A DNA stretch of 32,000 bases from Blochmannia endosymbiont of Camponotus modoc (GCF_023585785.1 NZ_CP097765.1:90001-122000), one strand, 5' to 3'. Shown: positions 5,190 to 23,084, numbered from the stretch's first letter. Notes: generated from the letters alone by a model not told the origin. A program made the numbers and translations.

Positions 5190-5825
5190 ATGGACAATAG
5201 GTTTATTACGATTGAAGGGTTAGATGGCGCTGGAAAAACTACTATTACTCATAGAATAAGTAAATACTTAAAAAATCAATATGGTGTAACCAATATTTTG
5301 ACTACTCATGAACCCGGTGGGACGCCAGTTTCGGATTTTTTACGTGTATTGATTAAATATGGCGGTCCTATGAATGAACCTATCAATAGTATATCAGAAT
5401 TATTAATGATATACGCTGCGCGATTACAATTGATAGAAAATGTTATTAAACCATCCTTATCTCAAGGTTATTGGGTAATTGGAGATAGATTTGATTTGTC
5501 TTCTCAGGCGTATCAAGGAGGCGGAAGAGAAATTGATATATTATTGTTACATGCTTTATCAGATAGGATCACAAATACCTTATCTCCAGATTTGACATTT
5601 TATCTTGATATTTCTCCAGAATTAAGCATATCTCGTATAAATCATAGACAGAAATTAGATCGTATTGAACAGGAGCCTCTGAGTTTTTTTGATCGCGTGC
5701 GTTCTTGTTACAAAAAATTAGCTTCTGAAAGAAAAAATATTGTCACGATTGATGCTACTCAAAGTTTAGAAGAAGTTTCCGTGTCTATTTATAGACATTT
5801 AGATTGGTGGTTCTTGCATCCGTAG
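5190..5825 (+). CDS. tmk: Thymidylate kinase
   Basis: MDNRFITIEGLDGAGKTT aligns residue-for-residue with E. coli MRSKYIVIEGLEGAGKTT. TREPGGT-like HEPGGTP and the DRF..SS.AYQG block are present. I prefer ATG 5190 (AGGA 12 nt upstream) over the ORF-track ATG 5178, so the start is uncertain by 12 nt. Confidence 0.93.
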   Translation: MDNRFITIEGLDGAGKTTITHRISKYLKNQYGVTNILTTHEPGGTPVSDFLRVLIKYGGPMNEPINSISELLMIYAARLQLIENVIKPSLSQGYWVIGDRFDLSSQAYQGGGREIDILLLHALSDRITNTLSPDLTFYLDISPELSISRINHRQKLDRIEQEPLSFFDRVRSCYKKLASERKNIVTIDATQSLEEVSVSIYRHLDWWFLHP

Positions 5826-16295: not shown

Positions 16296-16760
16296 ATGAC
16301 TAAAAATGATATAGAAGTATTGTCCAGTAATTTAGCATGTTTTCAAAAAAAAACAGATAATTTACAAGGATTTATCCAGGTTAGAGCAGCACATCGACGC
16401 GAGCTTGTTGATGATTATATTGAATTAATTGCAGATTTAATTCAAGAACGTGGGGAAGCGCGTCAGGTAGATTTAGCATTAAGACTTGGAGTAACGCAAC
16501 CAACAGTAGCAAAAATGTTAAAAAAGTTGATTGCTTCTTCATTAATTAAGCATAAACGTTATTGTGGAGTATCGTTGACAGAACAAGGAAGACAATTGGC
16601 TAATGAAAATCATATACGACACAAAATTGTAAAAACTTTTCTAATAGATTTAGGCATCAATAAAAAAATCGCTCAAAGAGATGCAGAAGGCATCGAGCAT
16701 CATGTTAGCAATGAAACATTGTTGGCATTTATTCAATTCTCTAAGCGCTTCAATAAATAA
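16296..16760 (+). CDS. mntR: Manganese-responsive transcriptional regulator MntR (DtxR family)
   Basis: 154 aa versus 155 aa in E. coli. [53 protein letters not shown] closely matches E. coli ...[68 protein letters not shown] matches RDAEGMEHHVSEETL. Confidence 0.93.
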
Positions 16761-17867: not shown

Positions 17868-18798
17868 TTATAATCATAGTGTATATTTATAAAAATATTT
17901 TATTTTTGATAAAATTTTGTAAGATATACTTTATGGTTATTGTGATTTGATAGAACATATTATTAGTATAATTTGTTCATAGTAAGTTAATTTTATGTAA
18001 TTTAAATAAGTAAATGGTATATTTAATTTCGGTTGTTGTTAAAATAAATAAATACAGGATATTGAAATTTTGAACGATAATAAACAGTTGGTCTGACTAA
18101 GTTAAATTGGCTATAATGATATTGAAAATATTATAATATTTTCTTTTTCTAATTATTTAATTAGAAAAACTTTATCTTATGCAGAGAATAATTTGTGTCT
18201 ATCTATTTGATAGATAATATATGTATTTATATGCAGTGATACATATTCATCATTGTTGAGCAGATATAAATGTCAGTTTATTTTAATGATTTAGATATAT
18301 ACGATTGATTTATATTTTTTTAGGGGCATCCCTATTCTGGGGAGTACCTATTAACAACGAATTAAAAAATAATAATTTTTTAATTTTTGTGATGTTTATT
18401 TTATAATGTGATTTTTTTAGTAAAAATTTAAGAATTAAAACAATGCGATAATGTCTTATAAGAGAATAGTATTATTTTTTAAATAAATAGTTGATAGATA
18501 TCATCTATAGTGTTTGTTAAATTTTAACAAAAGGGAAATGTGTTGAATTTAGTTAGTTTATTTAACGAATTTATAAATGGGTGTTTTCATTGAAGAAGTG
18601 GTTTTTGATTGAAAGAATATATAAATAAATGTATTTTATTTTTCATATGTTTTTAGGAATTATTAGTGAATAATGCGTACAATCCAGGTAAGTTGTTGCA
18701 AGCGCATATTGTTATTATATGCATGTTGTATAAAAATTAAAAATTTTAGAGTTAAAAATCAAGATAATATGAATTATATTATTATTTATTTGATTGTG

Positions 18799-19437
18799 TT
18801 ATGTAATTTCGGTGCATTGCATAATGCAGTCATTGCATTCAAATCCCAATTCTGAATGAAAAGCGCAAATGTTACATGAGTTTATTTCTTTACAACAATA
18901 TAGTTTAATATGATCTTTTTTAGTGTATAAGTACACAAAACCAATGCTGAGTAATATTACGACCATTATCGTCAGGGTAATCATATATTTTATATGAGCT
19001 TTGATATTTAGTAAAATAGAAGATGATAATAAATTATTGTTTTGATCTGTGGTTTTATGTAGAGGGGAAGATACGCATGGTCTATCTTCGTGTATTTTTT
19101 CTATAATCAATTGATTGTTTAACTTTAAACCTCGTTTAGGAATAGTTATAATGGATGAGGAATCTAATCCAAAAGATGTTAAAGTTTTTCGTATTAAACT
19201 AATTTGTTGATTTAAGTTGCCGTTAGATGGTTCCAGTCCATAAGCTCTCCAAACGATTGAAAACAAATGTTCTCGAGTGACTGGCGCACAAATATCAATA
19301 TTGTGTCGTTTAATTAGCTCTTCTAATACCCGTCCAGCAGAATTAGATAATTTTACTGATGTATTGGAATCAGTTAATGATGTCAGAGTATACTCTGTAG
19401 TGTCAAATATTATAGTCGATTGAATGACATATTTCAT
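18799..19437 (-). CDS. ToxR/CadC-like membrane-anchored transcriptional regulator: N-terminal OmpR/PhoB-type winged helix, one TM helix, short Cys-rich C-terminal tail
   Basis: 212 aa. Residues about 8-108 follow the ToxR/CadC wHTH pattern (F....L.......L...E..L..L......V.R..L...VW.........L.Q.IS.LRK.L......I.T.PKRG..L): IIFDTTEYTL...VKLSNSAGRVLEELIKRHN..APVTREHLFSIVWRAYGLEPSNGNLNQQISLIRKTLTSFGLDSSSIITIPKRGLKL. There is a single hydrophobic helix YMITLTIMVVILLSIGFVYLY at about residues 151-171. The tail that follows is 41 aa and contains 7 Cys. An intact ORF of this length is unlikely by chance in such AT-rich DNA. Confidence 0.75.
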   Translation of the reverse strand: MKYVIQSTIIFDTTEYTLTSLTDSNTSVKLSNSAGRVLEELIKRHNIDICAPVTREHLFSIVWRAYGLEPSNGNLNQQISLIRKTLTSFGLDSSSIITIPKRGLKLNNQLIIEKIHEDRPCVSSPLHKTTDQNNNLLSSSILLNIKAHIKYMITLTIMVVILLSIGFVYLYTKKDHIKLYCCKEINSCNICAFHSELGFECNDCIMQCTEIT

Positions 19438-19672
19438 GTAATTACTCTATATGAACTGTACGTGGATAAATCAACATTTGCGTCAGCTGTTTACATAAGA
19501 TTCAGATAATATATTTTTTTTATTAAAATATATATAGATACTATAAAAAGTATTTCATTATAAAAATGCATTAACATGATTGTAATGCGTGTTATTTAGA
19601 TTGCGCGCGTTTGCAATTTATTTTTTGATAGTATAACAACATTTTGTAAAAATCTAGCATATTAGTACGTGT

Positions 19673-19715
19673 ACTGCTCAAAATCAATATCGTCTTAATA
19701 TTGATTTTGAGCAGT
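19673..19715. promoter_or_regulatory. 18-bp perfect inverted repeat (ACTGCTCAAAATCAATAT / ATATTGATTTTGAGCAGT) with a 7-nt spacer CGTCTTA, in the divergent spacer between the ToxR-like gene and the receptor gene
   Basis: Verified base by base: the reverse complement of 19673-19690 equals 19698-19715. It is the longest perfect inverted repeat I found in the window. No T-run follows on either strand. Its role (operator, RNA hairpin or relic) is unknown. Confidence 0.5.
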
Positions 19716-20034
19716 TAATTCTTGTGATAAATTAAATAAAACGTGTTAACTAAACTTTAGTTGAAGATATAGAAATAGTAAGTACTTTAATTTCCTCAGT
19801 GTTAGTGTAATGTTGCAAATTCAATGTTATATAGATCACAATTTCTTTTTAAGAAATATGATATTTGTAAATAATTTCAAGATTATTTTTTTAGTCAGAA
19901 ACGATCGATTTTGATCAAGATTGTTAATATTATCTATTTATCTGATTTTATATTAGAAGAAATTAAGTTTTTAATATATATTGTAATAATGATATTAGTA
20001 TCTTGAAAAGAATGCAATAGTTACGAGCATACAT

Positions 20035-22185
20035 ATGGTATATGGTAAGTTTTTTTATAGTCATGAAATATTAATGCATATGATATTATTTTTGATATGT
20101 TTTGTGTTAATCATATTTACTGTTAATAATTCTCAAGCTAATTCAAATGATGTATCTGTTAGCAGTAGACATAAAGATACTTCGATATCAATATTTAGTA
20201 GCATACAAGAACTACCTATATTACTCCAAGGAAAAATGCATGATGATGTCATAACTGTTATTTCGACAAAAAATTCCCCGTTGATTTTTAGTGATTCTCC
20301 TGCAACATCTTTGCAGTCGTTGTATGTAATTGATGTTTCTGATTATTTAAAAGGTATTGCTGGATTCTCTGCTATTCGTAATGGAGGAGTGAATAACGAA
20401 CCAGTGTTTAGGGGAATGTTTGGATCTCGAATACGTATTTTGATGGATAATGGAGAAATACTTGGTGCCTGTTGTTCTCATATGGATCCTGTTAGTGCTT
20501 ATATTTTTCCTGAGACTTTTGATATTTTAAATATCATTAAAGGCCCTCAAACAGTACTATGGGGTCCTGTAACATCTGCGGGTACGTTGCAATTTGAACG
20601 ATATCATCCTCGATTTGATAAATCAAAAATTCAATTGCGTAGTAATGTAACAATCGGTGCAAATAATAAAATAGATAAAAATATAGATAGTATTATGGGG
20701 AGCAAATACGGCTATATTAGATTGATAGGCAATATTTCTCGTTCAGACGACTATCATGATGGTAATAAAGACCAGGTACATTCTGCGTGGTATAAATGGA
20801 ACGCTGATGCGATTTTGTCATTTAATTTGAGTGCAGATACATATTTAGAAGTCAGCCTAGGACAGGGAAATGGTACTGCAAATTATGCCGCTCGATCTAT
20901 GGATGGGTTATGTTTTGCTAGAGAAAGTTATGGAATGAAAATAGAAACTTTAGATATCAGCAAAATATTAGATAAAATTGAATTGCAAGCTTGGCATAAT
21001 TATGTAAGCCATATTATGGCTGATACTGTGTCTCATAATACAGAACTATCTACTGGAAAATGCTGTGGGTTTAGTAGTGGTAATATTAACAATAATGTTG
21101 ATCGATTAATATGGGGTGCACGAGGTATTACTGTATCTCAATGGGACAATATCAAATGTCATAGTGGCGCAGATGTTCAAATTAATACACATAGAAAACG
21201 TATAGAATCTAATTCTAATTGGAAAACGGACATTGTCTCTCGAGACACTGGTATATTTACCGAATTGATCGTTGATTCATTGTCAAACAGAAGATTTATT
21301 GGAGGGACACGACTGGAATACAGTGTAATTAATTTTAATAATTGTTCTAAATATAAACGACATGGTATAGTATATCCTGCTGGGTTTGTACGCTATGAAG
21401 ATAATATCAATCCGTTGTTGTCGTATTATATTGGTGTAGGTACAAGTTTTCGTTTGCCTGATTATTGGGAGTTATCTTATACTAAATCCGGAGAAAATAT
21501 TAATAATATAGATGATATTTTAAAATTAAAACCTGAAAAAACTGTTCAGATAGATATAGGAGCATGTTTTCAACATCTACAAATAAATGGATGGATATCA
21601 TCTTATGCTGGATATGTTAAAGATTTTATCGTATGTGATTATCGCAATGATGATACCATACAAGATGGTATTATTTACGCAGAGAACATTCATGCTAAAA
21701 TATGCGGAACTGAAGTAGGATTAAATTATCAATTTAATGAGCATTGGCACACTGCAACTAATATCTCGTGGTCCTGGGGCATGAATATTGATAATGGTTG
21801 CACTTTATTCAGAACGCCTCCATTGGAGGGTAGGGTTACATGCCAATGGATACGAGGAAGTTATAGTATAGCTGCTAAGTGGAGATTGGCATTGGCGCAA
21901 TCTATTAATAATTCGTTGATGTCACAGGAATCTTTTGTTTCTAGAAATATGTTGCCTCATACAAGTGTAAATTGTAATACTTCAGGATTTGGAATATTAT
22001 CCATGAATTTTGCGTGGAAAAGTTCCCAATTTTATAAATTTAGCATTGGTGTAGATAATTTACTAAATCATTCTTATAGAGAATATCTGAATTCGTATGT
22101 TCATAAACGACTTGGATATCCTTCTGGCACTCTGATTTATGAACCAGGGCGTACCTGGTGGATTAAATTAGGTATGGAGTTATGA
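20035..22185 (+). CDS. TonB-dependent outer-membrane receptor, OprC/NosA copper-receptor family
   Basis: 716 aa. The N-terminus is hydrophobic and signal-like (MHMILFLICFVLIIFTVNNSQA). A TonB-box-like DDVITVIST is present. The plug region NEPVFRGMFGSRIRILMDNGEILGACCSHMDPVSAYIFPETFDILNIIKGPQTVLWGPVTSAGTLQFER has the pattern I recognise from TonB-dependent copper receptors (RG..GSR...L.DG...GAC...MD.P.SYI.PE..D...V.KGPQTVLWGP..SAGT..FER). The rest is a long beta-barrel-like segment ending GRTWWIKLGMEL. The true start may instead be ATG 20074 or 20080. Confidence 0.85.
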   Translation: MVYGKFFYSHEILMHMILFLICFVLIIFTVNNSQANSNDVSVSSRHKDTSISIFSSIQELPILLQGKMHDDVITVISTKNSPLIFSDSPATSLQSLYVIDVSDYLKGIAGFSAIRNGGVNNEPVFRGMFGSRIRILMDNGEILGACCSHMDPVSAYIFPETFDILNIIKGPQTVLWGPVTSAGTLQFERYHPRFDKSKIQLRSNVTIGANNKIDKNIDSIMGSKYGYIRLIGNISRSDDYHDGNKDQVHSAWYKWNADAILSFNLSADTYLEVSLGQGNGTANYAARSMDGLCFARESYGMKIETLDISKILDKIELQAWHNYVSHIMADTVSHNTELSTGKCCGFSSGNINNNVDRLIWGARGITVSQWDNIKCHSGADVQINTHRKRIESNSNWKTDIVSRDTGIFTELIVDSLSNRRFIGGTRLEYSVINFNNCSKYKRHGIVYPAGFVRYEDNINPLLSYYIGVGTSFRLPDYWELSYTKSGENINNIDDILKLKPEKTVQIDIGACFQHLQINGWISSYAGYVKDFIVCDYRNDDTIQDGIIYAENIHAKICGTEVGLNYQFNEHWHTATNISWSWGMNIDNGCTLFRTPPLEGRVTCQWIRGSYSIAAKWRLALAQSINNSLMSQESFVSRNMLPHTSVNCNTSGFGILSMNFAWKSSQFYKFSIGVDNLLNHSYREYLNSYVHKRLGYPSGTLIYEPGRTWWIKLGMEL

Positions 22186-22363
22186 GTTATAAACATAAAC
22201 AAAAGATAAAAAATCTTTACTGATATTAATGTGATTGATGCAACGAGTATGTATGAATTTACCATGATTTTTGAAAAAAACCTAACAGATGGACTTGCAT
22301 TTCACATTGGATATTAACGGTGTTAATATATAATATATAAAAGTTTAAATTAAGTTTTGATTA

Positions 22364-22582
22364 TTATCGGCTACGGAAAATAATCCTTCCTTTACTTAAA
22401 TCGTATGGTGTCAGTTCAACGGTGACTTTGTCTCCTGTTAATATTCGAATGTAGTTTTTTCTTATTTTTCCAGAAATATGTGCTACAACGACGTGTCCGT
22501 TTTCTAATTTTACACGAAACATCGTATTAGGCAAGGTATCTAATACTGTACCGTGCATTTCGAAACTATCTTCTTTTGTCAT
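22364..22582 (-). CDS. infA: Translation initiation factor IF-1
   Basis: 72 aa, near-identical to E. coli InfA: [64 protein letters not shown]. Confidence 0.98.
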
Positions 22583-23084
22583 TATGATCTCTAAAAAATT
22601 AAATAAACGATTCGGAATTTTCTCATAAGATTAGAAGCTAATCAAGTGTTGATTTTATTCGTACGATAATTGAAATATTTAATTTTAATAAATTTATTAG
22701 AAAAGTTCATTTTTTGTCAAATACAATTACTACATTATAACTATAATAATAGACTATAATTGGGATCTATATTATTAGAATTTGGTTACTTGTTTCATTT
22801 GCTTTAGACGTCATATATATTACTTACTGCTTCAGTACAAATCCTGTTTTTGTTTTGTATTTTATGTATTCAGATTGTAATATATTCACTATATATTTGT
22901 GTAGTTAACTCCATATATCTATTCAACGTTGTTGCTACGTATTCTGAATAGCACTAAACATTATTTTTTTTACTTATTAAATATTAATTTTTATTTTTAG
23001 ATTTTGTAAGTACGAATAATTATATATTTTATTTAAAAATTAATGGATAGTTTTATTTGAATTTTGTTTTATTTGTTTAGTATA

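Follow-up and report, generated by a model that had tools for sequence, protein, structure and literature searches.

What keeps a membrane-bound regulator and a copper receptor side by side in the genome of an obligate symbiont? The two genes lie divergently in a window of 32,000 nucleotides (GCF_023585785.1, NZ_CP097765.1:90001-122000) from the Blochmannia endosymbiont of Camponotus modoc, which we assigned to the pennsylvanicus group of Blochmannia. A first-pass annotation, made from the sequence alone, proposed them as a candidate module, undescribed and locally controlled, for sensing and taking up copper. If the regulator controls the receptor gene or senses copper, it would rank with the very few regulators that still function and respond to signals in a genome of ~0.79 Mb; if it senses copper, it would be the first ToxR-type metal sensor.

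Both open reading frames (ORFs) are intact, open and divergent (212 and 716 aa), with 597 bp between the longest ORFs, as first annotated. In the sister strain CP097754.1 the ATG at 20035 of the receptor gene, oprC, does not lie in the reading frame: a 1-bp homopolymer difference and an upstream stop intervene, and GenBank gives a product of 693 aa. The start is likely the ATG at 20074 (M14), which yields the signal peptide MHMILFLICFVLIIFTVNNSQA, a protein of ~703 aa and a spacer of 636 bp. Purifying selection (dN/dS) acts on both genes, in agreement with the view that the pair is intact and not decaying. Two other parts of the annotation did not hold. The pair is not the only non-housekeeping island in the window, since an MntR-type metalloregulator lies two genes off, at 16296-16760. 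Nor is either gene new: the Blochmannia literature names both oprC and yqeI and gives them as neighbours, Bfl390 having been named yqeI as early as 2006 and the order infA-oprC-yqeI-emtA appearing in Williams & Wernegreen 2015.

Coordinates of features at the oprC-yqeI locus, counted from the first nucleotide of the window
Feature	Position	Strand	Basis or remark
yqeI-like gene, 212-aa ToxR-fold YqeI/MarT-family membrane-anchored winged helix-turn-helix (wHTH) regulator	18799..19437	-	ORF, homologues, alignment
Periplasmic Cys cluster CCKEINSCNIC (C181-C191, includes CxxC)	18865..18897	-	alignment, enrichment
Single transmembrane helix, residues ~141-174	18916..19017	-	Kyte-Doolittle and AF2
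Cytoplasmic OmpR/ToxR-type winged-helix DNA-binding domain, residues 1-115	19093..19437	-	Pfam, profile against PDB, AF2, Foldseek
Divergent intergenic spacer	19438..20073	.	holds cruR (DUF2946) upstream ORF (uORF) in B. tofi
Conserved non-coding footprint (~35 bp), (A/G)CTAGATTTT(T/A)A then ..T.TT.TT.TA.T	19620..19660	-	spacer alignment
Perfect 18-bp inverted repeat, 7-nt loop	19673..19715	.	window and sister strain L001 only
oprC, OprC/NosA-family TonB-dependent copper transporter	20074..22185 (longest ORF from 20035)	+	TIGR01778, Plug and barrel, 6FOK match
Ton box DVITVIS, residues 71-77 (716-aa numbering)	20245..20265	+	aligned with P. aeruginosa OprC Ton box 68-PSVVTGV-75
Plug-domain copper ligands CxxxM (C146, M150)	20470..20484	+	aligned with OprC C143, M147
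Barrel-wall copper ligands HxM (H326, M328)	21010..21018	+	aligned with OprC H323, M325

Receptor identity and energy supply

The assignment of the receptor to the OprC family of copper TonB-dependent receptors was upheld. It scored 484.6 bits against TIGR01778 TonB-copper, above the curated equivalog cut-off of 472.45 (next family, 68.6 bits), and matched Plug PF07715 (E=8.4e-9) and TonB_dep_Rec PF00593 (E=5.2e-20); P. aeruginosa OprC (PDB 6FOK) aligned over its full length with 437 bits. Databases name the B. pennsylvanica, floridana and vafra proteins ‘TonB-dependent copper receptor’ or ‘OprC’. Both the core of the Ton box and the four ligands C146, M150, H326 and M328 are kept in all eight orthologues compared (six Blochmannia, Sodalis Psp and B. 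tofi). The product is probably a working outer-membrane copper importer: copper would bind at the CxxxM-HxM site and, once TonB acts at the Ton box, pass into the periplasm. In most Blochmannia the protein ends in Leu, where an aromatic residue is usual.

In the published Blochmannia gene tables tonB, like oprC, is pan-Camponotus only, and the paper's text lists both among parallel losses; exbB and exbD are missing from six of six tabulated genomes, and tolQRA is present in all lineages. Of the tonB-exbBD system that the first annotation named as a condition for energising the receptor, these tables list tonB in the Camponotus clade and neither exbB nor exbD in the six genomes. The distribution of oprC follows that of tonB, not that of yqeI. 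Because ExbBD is absent, it is probably TolQR, retained in all lineages, that energises TonB, as suggested by the cross-complementation of TolQR and ExbBD known in E. coli.

The same tables list cyoABCDE in all lineages, and do not list copA, cueO, sodC or cus. They contain one canonical cuproenzyme, cytochrome bo3 oxidase (cyoABCDE), which is the most likely copper client. Its dependence on oprC would not be absolute, because cyoABCDE is retained in B. obliquus and B. turneri, both of which lack oprC and tonB. Also retained are zur, dsbA and dsbB.

Regulator, cysteine tail and spacer

Homologues of the regulator occur in all Blochmannia, in Wigglesworthia (‘yqeI’), in Sodalis and in Bruguierivoracaceae, and the sources name those of Wigglesworthia and Sodalis YqeI. 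E. coli YqeI aligned with 26% identity over 204 columns (E=7e-14), spanning the wHTH, the transmembrane helix and the first periplasmic Cys; with identity this low, the protein is best called a homologue, not a proven orthologue, of the ETT2 gene. Against Pfam Trans_reg_C (PF00486) the single sequence fell just short (residues 26-104, 23 bits; gathering score 26.2), whereas a profile of the regulator family searched against PDB matched the DNA-binding domains of ToxR (E=1.8e-14) and CadC (1.3e-5). The AF2 model of the domain (pLDDT >90) superimposed by Foldseek on ToxR 8b4d, from ToxR-DNA complexes, with TM 0.89, rmsd 1.5 A and 31% identity. The hydropathy maximum (Kyte-Doolittle 2.55) lies at residues 152-170, within the AF2 helix, and a helix at 149-171 was given for Bfl390 in 2006. 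These data bear out the description of a ToxR-like, membrane-tethered wHTH regulator, and the gene is tightly constrained (dN/dS 0.00-0.13, unsaturated pairs).

What the regulator has lost is periplasmic. It is C-terminally shortened, with 212 aa versus ~270 aa in free-living homologues, a loss of ~60 aa. Only ~40 residues follow the transmembrane helix (~100 in homologues), with pLDDT <50, and no folded periplasmic sensor domain was found among them. Of the alpha/beta periplasmic domain, in which a disulfide joins the last two strands, the C-terminal half with the ...AKC...CLNF... cysteines is deleted in all aligned Blochmannia. A FidL gene lies directly downstream of the regulator in every free-living relative, including B. 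tofi, Acerihabitans and Sodalis; tblastn with B. tofi FidL found no homologue at any Blochmannia locus, and the partner is also missing in Sodalis Psp and Wigglesworthia. As a ToxR-fold membrane-anchored activator that lacks both the lipocalin-like FidL/YqeJ partner and the greater part of the periplasmic sensor domain, YqeI is most likely a largely signal-blind, or a redox/disulfide-tuned, regulator.

In place of the ~100-aa sensor domain stands a Cys-rich tail of ~40 aa. The cysteine richness remarked on at first annotation is real: 7 of 42 residues are Cys, against a background of 1.6% in the other ORFs of the window (P ~5e-6). Nearly all retrieved Blochmannia homologues have the complete cluster; in P0026 (CGKETSTCSIC) and in the lineages without oprC, only its last three Cys remain. 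Homologues outside Blochmannia read F-F...C...Y in these columns, and the cluster would have arisen by Blochmannia-specific F-to-C, F-to-C and Y-to-C substitutions. AF2 confidence is low over the tail.

The spacer has also been stripped. CruR (DUF2946) is a copper-responsive upstream ORF that heads TonB-dependent transporter operons (Roy et al. 2022), and we found copies immediately upstream of oprC in B. tofi (CxxC-45 aa-RAPP) and Serratia (CxxC-46 aa-RAPP). A tblastn search with B. tofi DUF2946 returned nothing in any Blochmannia locus, no CxxC...RAPP ORF occurs in any frame of six Blochmannia spacers or of Sodalis Psp, and an Rfam search of the spacer gave no match. In free-living relatives this arrest-peptide uORF, together with Rho, puts oprC under copper control; as the uORF has been deleted in Blochmannia, oprC is probably expressed there without copper feedback. 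Rho is still encoded in Blochmannia.

One conserved element of ~35 bp appears to persist in the oprC promoter region. It is the sole invariant block in the spacer alignment, with one exact copy per spacer in 6/6 oprC-bearing Blochmannia, 147-235 bp upstream of yqeI. Its position weight matrix scored 30-51 bits in oprC-bearing spacers and at most 4 bits in oprC-less lineages and outgroups. This footprint is a candidate promoter or operator element; it is present exactly where oprC is, and therefore some factor presumably acts there, the nearest candidate being YqeI. The inverted repeat close by is absent from the other Blochmannia species compared.

Coupling of the two genes

The pair is co-localised in some relatives: oprC and the regulator adjoin each other in Biostraticola tofi, in Sodalis sp. 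Psp and in all Camponotus-clade Blochmannia examined, and their adjacency was inferred in eight further contigs. The divergent adjacency is old, as would be expected of a regulator and its target. It counts against separate functions, as does the precedent of MarT, a member of the YqeI/MarT family, which activates the adjacent misL.

Distribution tells against local control. In the Polyrhachis and Colobopsis lineages yqeI is intact beside infA and oprC is gone, and Table S3 of Williams & Wernegreen 2015 gives yqeI in all lineages and oprC as pan-Camponotus only. The absence of oprC concerns sister lineages, not sister strains. In Wigglesworthia, yqeI stands as an orphan flanked by pgpA and rpoD, and no oprC lies closer than 10 kb. 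About nine free-living relatives have hxlR and a ketoacyl synthase, rather than oprC, as divergent neighbours of the regulator, and no such regulator lies near oprC in Serratia or Sodalis sp. C49. Furthermore, the known control of this receptor class is the CruR uORF, which ancestrally lay between the two genes and is lost here. None of these points supports the proposed locally controlled copper module.

We therefore think it probable that these are two ancestral genes, neighbours since before Blochmannia and now kept for separate reasons. Because yqeI is kept in every case where oprC has been lost, the target or targets that make it essential would lie elsewhere. Regulation of oprC by YqeI is possible, and this account does not require it.

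Such regulation is central to another reading, which we hold possible but do not favour, in which YqeI is a broad, possibly constitutive activator with oprC as one of several targets. After the loss of CruR, transcription from the spacer would have come to need the adjacent YqeI, acting on the 35-bp element, and YqeI would be kept in oprC-less lineages for its other targets. The divergent adjacency is indeed older than Blochmannia, but most free-living relatives lack it. The footprint is found only with oprC, although its absence from oprC-less lineages may reflect the same deletion that removed oprC; moreover, the family has no known binding motif and the footprint no obvious direct-repeat architecture. 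Very strong constraint on the DNA-binding domain (dN/dS 0-0.13) and the MarT precedent fit a broad activator, whereas STRING predicts no partners for Bfl390.

A dedicated module, in which the CxxC-bearing tail of YqeI detects periplasmic copper and adjusts the transcription of oprC, seems unlikely. CxxC is a recognised Cu-binding motif, as in CruR, whose loss leaves a vacancy for a copper sensor, and the enriched tail cysteines are kept in nearly all retrieved Blochmannia where relatives have F/F/Y. However, conservation of the C-x5-C-x2-C core, and of the gene as a whole, is just as strong in lineages without oprC and without tonB, the regulator is kept in Wigglesworthia with no oprC nearby, and the tail is modelled with low confidence. 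The periplasmic cysteines of ToxR, TcpP and CadC work via disulfides rather than metal, and dsbA and dsbB are retained. A dedicated copper-sensing pair is thus weakly supported, with the comparative evidence against it. A related proposal, in our judgement improbable, is that after the loss of CruR and FidL Blochmannia rebuilt a minimal sensor from the truncated YqeI, whose newly evolved CCx5CxxC would bind copper or report periplasmic redox state and control oprC via the 35-bp element; no ToxR-type one-component metal sensor has yet been described, and this, if true, would be one.

Least credible of all is a receptor that is a decaying or repurposed relic (unenergised for want of ExbBD, a TonB-independent pore, or an importer of another metal such as zinc): exbB and exbD are missing from all tabulated Blochmannia, oprC has disappeared in two independent events, Leu is a non-canonical C-terminal residue, and the related receptor ZnuD imports zinc with zur retained, but oprC evolves at dN/dS 0.20-0.23, similar to the adjoining housekeeping genes, its four copper ligands and Ton box are invariant across lineages in which synonymous sites are saturated, tonB is kept only where oprC is kept, ZnuD scores 30 bits against 485 for TonB-copper, and a Zur-box scan was not above chance.

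As both genes had already been annotated, the main gain is a cleaner annotation. oprC, whose copper site and Ton box are intact, is found together with tonB; ‘yqeI’ is a truncated, partner-less member of a co-component regulator family; and CruR, the copper switch of the ancestor, is gone. Together they give a concrete picture of an obligate symbiont simplifying its control of metal uptake.

Comparison with known systems

The regulator belongs with the YqeI/YqeJ, MarT/FidL and GrvA/FidL co-component systems of the VtrA/VtrC superfamily (Kinch et al. 2022). Like these it has an N-terminal ToxR-type wHTH, a linker and a single transmembrane helix, and it keeps the start of the periplasmic domain and the first conserved Cys; its full-length orthologues in free-living relatives share an operon with a FidL_like (PF15941) gene. 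In contrast to these systems, the Blochmannia protein lacks the FidL partner gene, has a periplasmic part of ~40 aa without the partner-docking C-terminal disulfide strands, and carries the new CCx5CxxC cluster. Vibrio cholerae ToxR is the closest match of the DNA-binding domain in both structure and sequence. ToxR and E. coli CadC share with the regulator their membrane topology and periplasmic cysteines, but the Blochmannia protein has neither a ToxS-like partner nor a folded periplasmic sensor domain.

In the CruR system (Roy et al. 2022), B. tofi shows the ancestral arrangement at this locus, with cruR immediately before oprC and pointing away from the regulator; Serratia has the order cruR-oprC, and Blochmannia and Sodalis sp. 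Psp have wholly lost cruR. Compared with OprC of P. aeruginosa (6FOK; Bhamidimarri et al. 2021) and NosA of P. stutzeri, Blochmannia oprC has no upstream cruR uORF and no downstream PA3789-type reductase, ExbBD, CopA, CueO and Cus are missing from the published Blochmannia gene tables, and its product ends in Leu. The Blochmannia proteins contain 14-22 Cys each versus 3-5 in free-living relatives, which fits the local 1.6% background. At ~40% identity, the Blochmannia receptor shares with OprC and NosA the plug and barrel, and has the CxxxM-HxM ligands and the Ton box at homologous positions.

Distribution of yqeI and oprC across relatives

The regulator (yqeI) and the receptor (oprC) are present in this AT-rich window (GC ∼23–37%) as two divergent ORFs 597 bp apart, as the first-pass annotation had read them. 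The sister strain CP097754.1 (genome 789,868 bp) has a protein 100% identical to the regulator and a receptor copy at 97.6% identity; the receptor of B. pennsylvanica is 93% identical. The window thus represents a sister strain within the B. pennsylvanica group. The description of the pair as the only non-housekeeping island was somewhat overstated, because an MntR-type metalloregulator is encoded close by. Some Blochmannia lineages lack this mntR gene or have it rearranged, and none was called in B. vafra (L023).

Features of the yqeI-oprC locus and its surroundings (window coordinates)
Feature	Position	Strand	Remark
MntR-type (Fe_dep_repress) metalloregulator	16296-16760	+	two genes from the yqeI/oprC pair
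Non-coding gap, 931 bp	17868-18798		between convergent emtA and yqeI
yqeI, regulator, 212 aa	18799-19437	-	
Cys cluster CCKEINSCNIC	18865-18897		regulator residues 181-191
Footprint (A/G)CTAGATTTT(T/A)A, then semi-conserved T-rich stretch	~19620-19660	yqeI-sense	
Block CTAGATTTTTA			in the 636-bp spacer
Perfect 18-bp inverted repeat, 7-nt loop, ACTGCTCAAAATCAATAT / ATATTGATTTTGAGCAGT	19673-19715		between the divergent genes
oprC, receptor ORF, 716 aa	20035-22185	+	

We favor, with some reserve, the reading that yqeI and oprC are neighbors with separate raisons d'être. That YqeI regulates oprC among other genes is a tentative alternative, and a dedicated copper-sensing module formed by the two, as first proposed, is distinctly improbable. 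The argument for coupling is the age of the divergent adjacency, which is found in B. floridanus, B. vafra, B. vicinus, B. ocreatus and the window lineage and, judging from contigs of matching length, probably also on eight further assembled contigs; for seven contigs of 10–44 kb carrying yqeI, no matching oprC contig was found. Sodalis sp. Psp has the pair in the same serS-lolA-ftsK-lrp-trxB flank as Blochmannia, and the free-living Biostraticola tofi also has a divergent oprC/yqeI pair. Other observations argue against coupling. Table S3 of Williams & Wernegreen 2015 records yqeI in B. obliquus, B. turneri and the pan-Camponotus clade, but oprC in the latter only, and our own inspection of the symbionts of Polyrhachis and Colobopsis showed an intact yqeI adjoining infA and no oprC. 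In Wigglesworthia, yqeI is full-length and flanked by pgpA and rpoD, and no receptor gene lies within 10 kb of it; in approximately nine free-living relatives the divergent neighbor of the regulator is hxlR plus a ketoacyl synthase gene; and oprC of Serratia and of Sodalis sp. C49 has no such regulator close by. Thus, retention of the regulator is independent of oprC, and the proposal of a copper-sensing module is not supported. In the literature searched, we found no paper proposing or testing a regulatory link between yqeI and oprC, and no expression data for Bfl389/390.

Weak matches to several OprC queries (E 0.15–7) were seen in the Polyrhachis locus (L024, ∼5230–5413, offsets 687–869 of the infA-yqeI gap). 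They correspond to plug-domain residues ∼100–170 and are colinear and on the strand expected for oprC. These alignments suggest that oprC was not cleanly deleted here but survives in the gap as an almost obliterated pseudogene, amounting at most to a very eroded plug-domain trace. In most relatives other than Sodalis sp. Psp and B. tofi, hxlR-KAS and not oprC lies upstream of the regulator; the oprC-yqeI order in these two may mark, by synteny, which free-living lineage is nearest the Blochmannia ancestor.

The receptor and its copper supply

Assignment of the receptor to the OprC family of copper TonB-dependent receptors was upheld. Both Pfam Plug and TonB_dep_Rec domains are present, and the NCBIfam model TIGR01778 (“TonB-dependent copper receptor”) scored 484.6 bits against a curated cut-off of 472.45, with the runner-up family at 68.6 bits. 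Among solved structures the best match is OprC of P. aeruginosa (6FOK; 437 bits over residues 72–713), for which the OprC paper describes a copper site of C143, M147, H323 and M325 and a Ton box at 68-PSVVTGV-75. Receptor residues C146, M150, H326 and M328 and the sequence DVITVIS align with this copper site and Ton box. Six Blochmannia lineages, Sodalis sp. Psp and B. tofi all share them without change or with conservative changes only, although the overall identity of these orthologues falls to 40–50%. The dN/dS of oprC was 0.20 relative to the sister strain and 0.23 relative to B. vicinus, in the same range as its neighbors trxB (0.15–0.16), mnmA (0.18–0.23) and emtA (0.28–0.44); synonymous sites are saturated between more distant Blochmannia lineages. 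By these sequence measures, oprC appears to be a functional gene and encodes an OprC, the name it already has in public records (“TonB-dependent copper receptor” or “outer membrane protein OprC”), and it is very hard to credit that the receptor is a relic or a non-copper receptor.

Codons 1–13 of the 716-aa ORF (20035–20073) are not conserved as coding sequence; in CP097754.1, a 1-bp T/A homopolymer difference puts ATG 20035 out of frame, and a stop lies upstream. Starting at ATG 20074 yields a signal peptide ending in SQA, and this is probably the true start, which would make the spacer 636 bp long. At the other end of the protein, outer-membrane proteins usually carry an aromatic C-terminal residue as their assembly signal. 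OprC (window 22180–22185) ends in Leu in the window lineage, B. vicinus, B. ocreatus and B. vafra, and in Phe in B. floridanus, Sodalis sp. Psp and B. tofi.

In E. coli, TolQR can partly replace ExbBD. The published table contains no exbB or exbD at all, and tolQ-tolR-tolA is universal in it. In the same table the phyletic pattern of oprC is that of tonB, both being pan-Camponotus only, and Williams & Wernegreen 2015 count both among parallel losses. From the published gene order, we estimate that tonB lies ∼25 kb or more outside the window. In the most likely mechanism, OprC would take up ionic copper into the periplasm with the help of TonB, for which TolQR would probably supply the drive. 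The published tables list a single cuproenzyme, cytochrome bo3 (cyoABCDE), and no copper efflux or detoxification genes; this oxidase would be the copper client of OprC.

The divergent spacer and the ancestral copper switch

Among six oprC-bearing Blochmannia, the spacer is ∼55% identical apart from a single invariant block, a footprint of ∼35 bp. It occurs once per spacer in 6/6 of these lineages, 147–235 bp upstream of yqeI. A position weight matrix built from five lineages scored 30–51 bits in oprC-bearing spacers and ≤4 bits upstream of yqeI in the oprC-less lineages, Sodalis sp. Psp, B. tofi, Wigglesworthia and Acerihabitans. The footprint is real, and its presence tracks oprC; its absence elsewhere may be a mere consequence of the deletion that removed oprC. 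As a fixed −35/−10 promoter of either gene the footprint was rejected, its spacing being inconsistent between species by eye. Zur control of oprC was also rejected (18 Zur-box matches versus 12.9 ± 3.7 expected, the local match not being palindromic in other species), an MntR-box scan for control of oprC gave no match, and neither scan accounted for the footprint. An Rfam scan of 18500–22700 (E≤1) returned no RNA element, and a sigma-70 promoter scan was uninformative because it gave 36 sites against 32 expected in AT-rich DNA. The inverted repeat between the genes was rejected as an operator because it is confined to this lineage, being found in the window and CP097754.1 only. An AT-only palindrome occupies the corresponding site in B. 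vicinus but is unrelated to it.

B. tofi carries a DUF2946 gene in the interval separating the regulator from oprC, in the same orientation as oprC, and Serratia likewise has a DUF2946-oprC pair. Roy et al. 2022 described DUF2946 proteins (CruR) as copper-responsive upstream ORFs in which a CxxC, ∼45 residues and a RAPP arrest motif control Rho-dependent termination before a TonB-dependent transporter gene; P. aeruginosa oprC has cruR upstream as well. The motif spacing agrees with this system in B. tofi (CxxC-45-RAPP) and Serratia (CxxC-46-RAPP). No cruR relic was detected in any Blochmannia spacer, in the 931-bp gap next to yqeI or in Sodalis sp. Psp by tblastn (word size 2, E≤10) and six-frame motif scans. 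Thus, the copper sensor described for this class of receptor once lay in the spacer and has since been deleted, which explains the length of the spacer more simply than a new copper sensor of ToxR type would. Although cruR has been lost, rho is retained in Blochmannia; loss of CruR suggests that oprC would be expressed without copper feedback.

The regulator compared with co-component systems

The regulator is a membrane-tethered winged helix-turn-helix (wHTH) protein, as had been read from the sequence. Its single sequence scored 23 bits against Trans_reg_C, just below the gathering threshold of 26.2, and a profile of 18 homologues matched the ToxR DNA-binding domain (E = 1.8e-14) and CadC (1.3e-5). 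The AlphaFold model has a confident wHTH at residues 1–115 (pLDDT >90), followed by a disordered linker, one long helix (141–174) and a low-confidence tail; hydropathy peaks at residues 152–170. The top Foldseek matches were ToxR-DNA complexes (TM 0.89, rmsd 1.5 Å, 31% identity). Homologues are present in every Blochmannia and, at ∼40–50% identity, in Sodalis, Wigglesworthia (annotated yqeI), Acerihabitans and Biostraticola; identity to E. coli K-12 YqeI is 26% (E = 7e-14). The regulator dN/dS is 0.00–0.13.

The cysteine-rich external tail was likewise borne out: ∼40 aa after the transmembrane helix contain 7 Cys (P ∼5e-6 relative to a local 1.6% Cys). The core CCKE(I/V)xxCx(I/V)C is common to nearly all retrieved Blochmannia sequences. 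P0026 departs from it with CGKETSTCSIC, as do the oprC-less lineages, in which the last three of the four Cys remain. Homologues from outside Blochmannia all read F-F...C...Y here. Each of the F, F and Y to Cys changes is a single-nucleotide substitution, kept across nearly all retrieved Blochmannia sequences.

The pair is not undescribed. The Blochmannia literature and GenBank annotation already contain the two genes under these names and as neighbors, a 2006 publication gave the wHTH and transmembrane architecture for Bfl390 (yqeI), the orthologue in B. floridanus, and the finding itself is already known. New, on a small scale, are the recognition of yqeI as a co-component regulator that is truncated and lacks its partner, the loss of CruR in Blochmannia, the footprint linked to oprC, and the Blochmannia-specific Cys cluster.

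In free-living relatives the regulator is ∼270 aa long, with a FidL_like (PF15941) gene directly downstream and a dCache-GGDEF gene beyond it; in Blochmannia the non-coding gap 3′ of yqeI takes the place of these two. No fidL relics were found in that gap or in Blochmannia spacers (tblastn word size 2, E≤10; six-frame motif scans), and the gap retains no detectable remnant of either gene. The FidL-like partner has no significant BLASTP similarity to E. coli YqeJ, and the Pfam FidL_like assignment is the sole link between them. Wigglesworthia (L022, L005) and Sodalis sp. Psp (L020) have lost the FidL gene and keep a full-length regulator (267–271 aa); in these genomes the partner was therefore lost with the regulator untruncated, independently of the Blochmannia truncation. 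In the most likely reading, YqeI persists as a conserved, inner-membrane-anchored DNA-binding protein that has lost its ligand-sensing apparatus, is probably constitutive or tuned by disulfide/redox state (dsbA and dsbB are retained), and would have at least one target other than oprC. Kinch et al. 2022 described YqeI/YqeJ and MarT/FidL as “co-component” systems, in which the periplasmic domain of the regulator has a C-terminal disulfide and docks a lipocalin-like partner. The regulator and FidL_like gene order of the free-living relatives is this same architecture. In contrast to these systems, Blochmannia has neither the partner gene nor the ∼60 C-terminal residues of the periplasmic domain.
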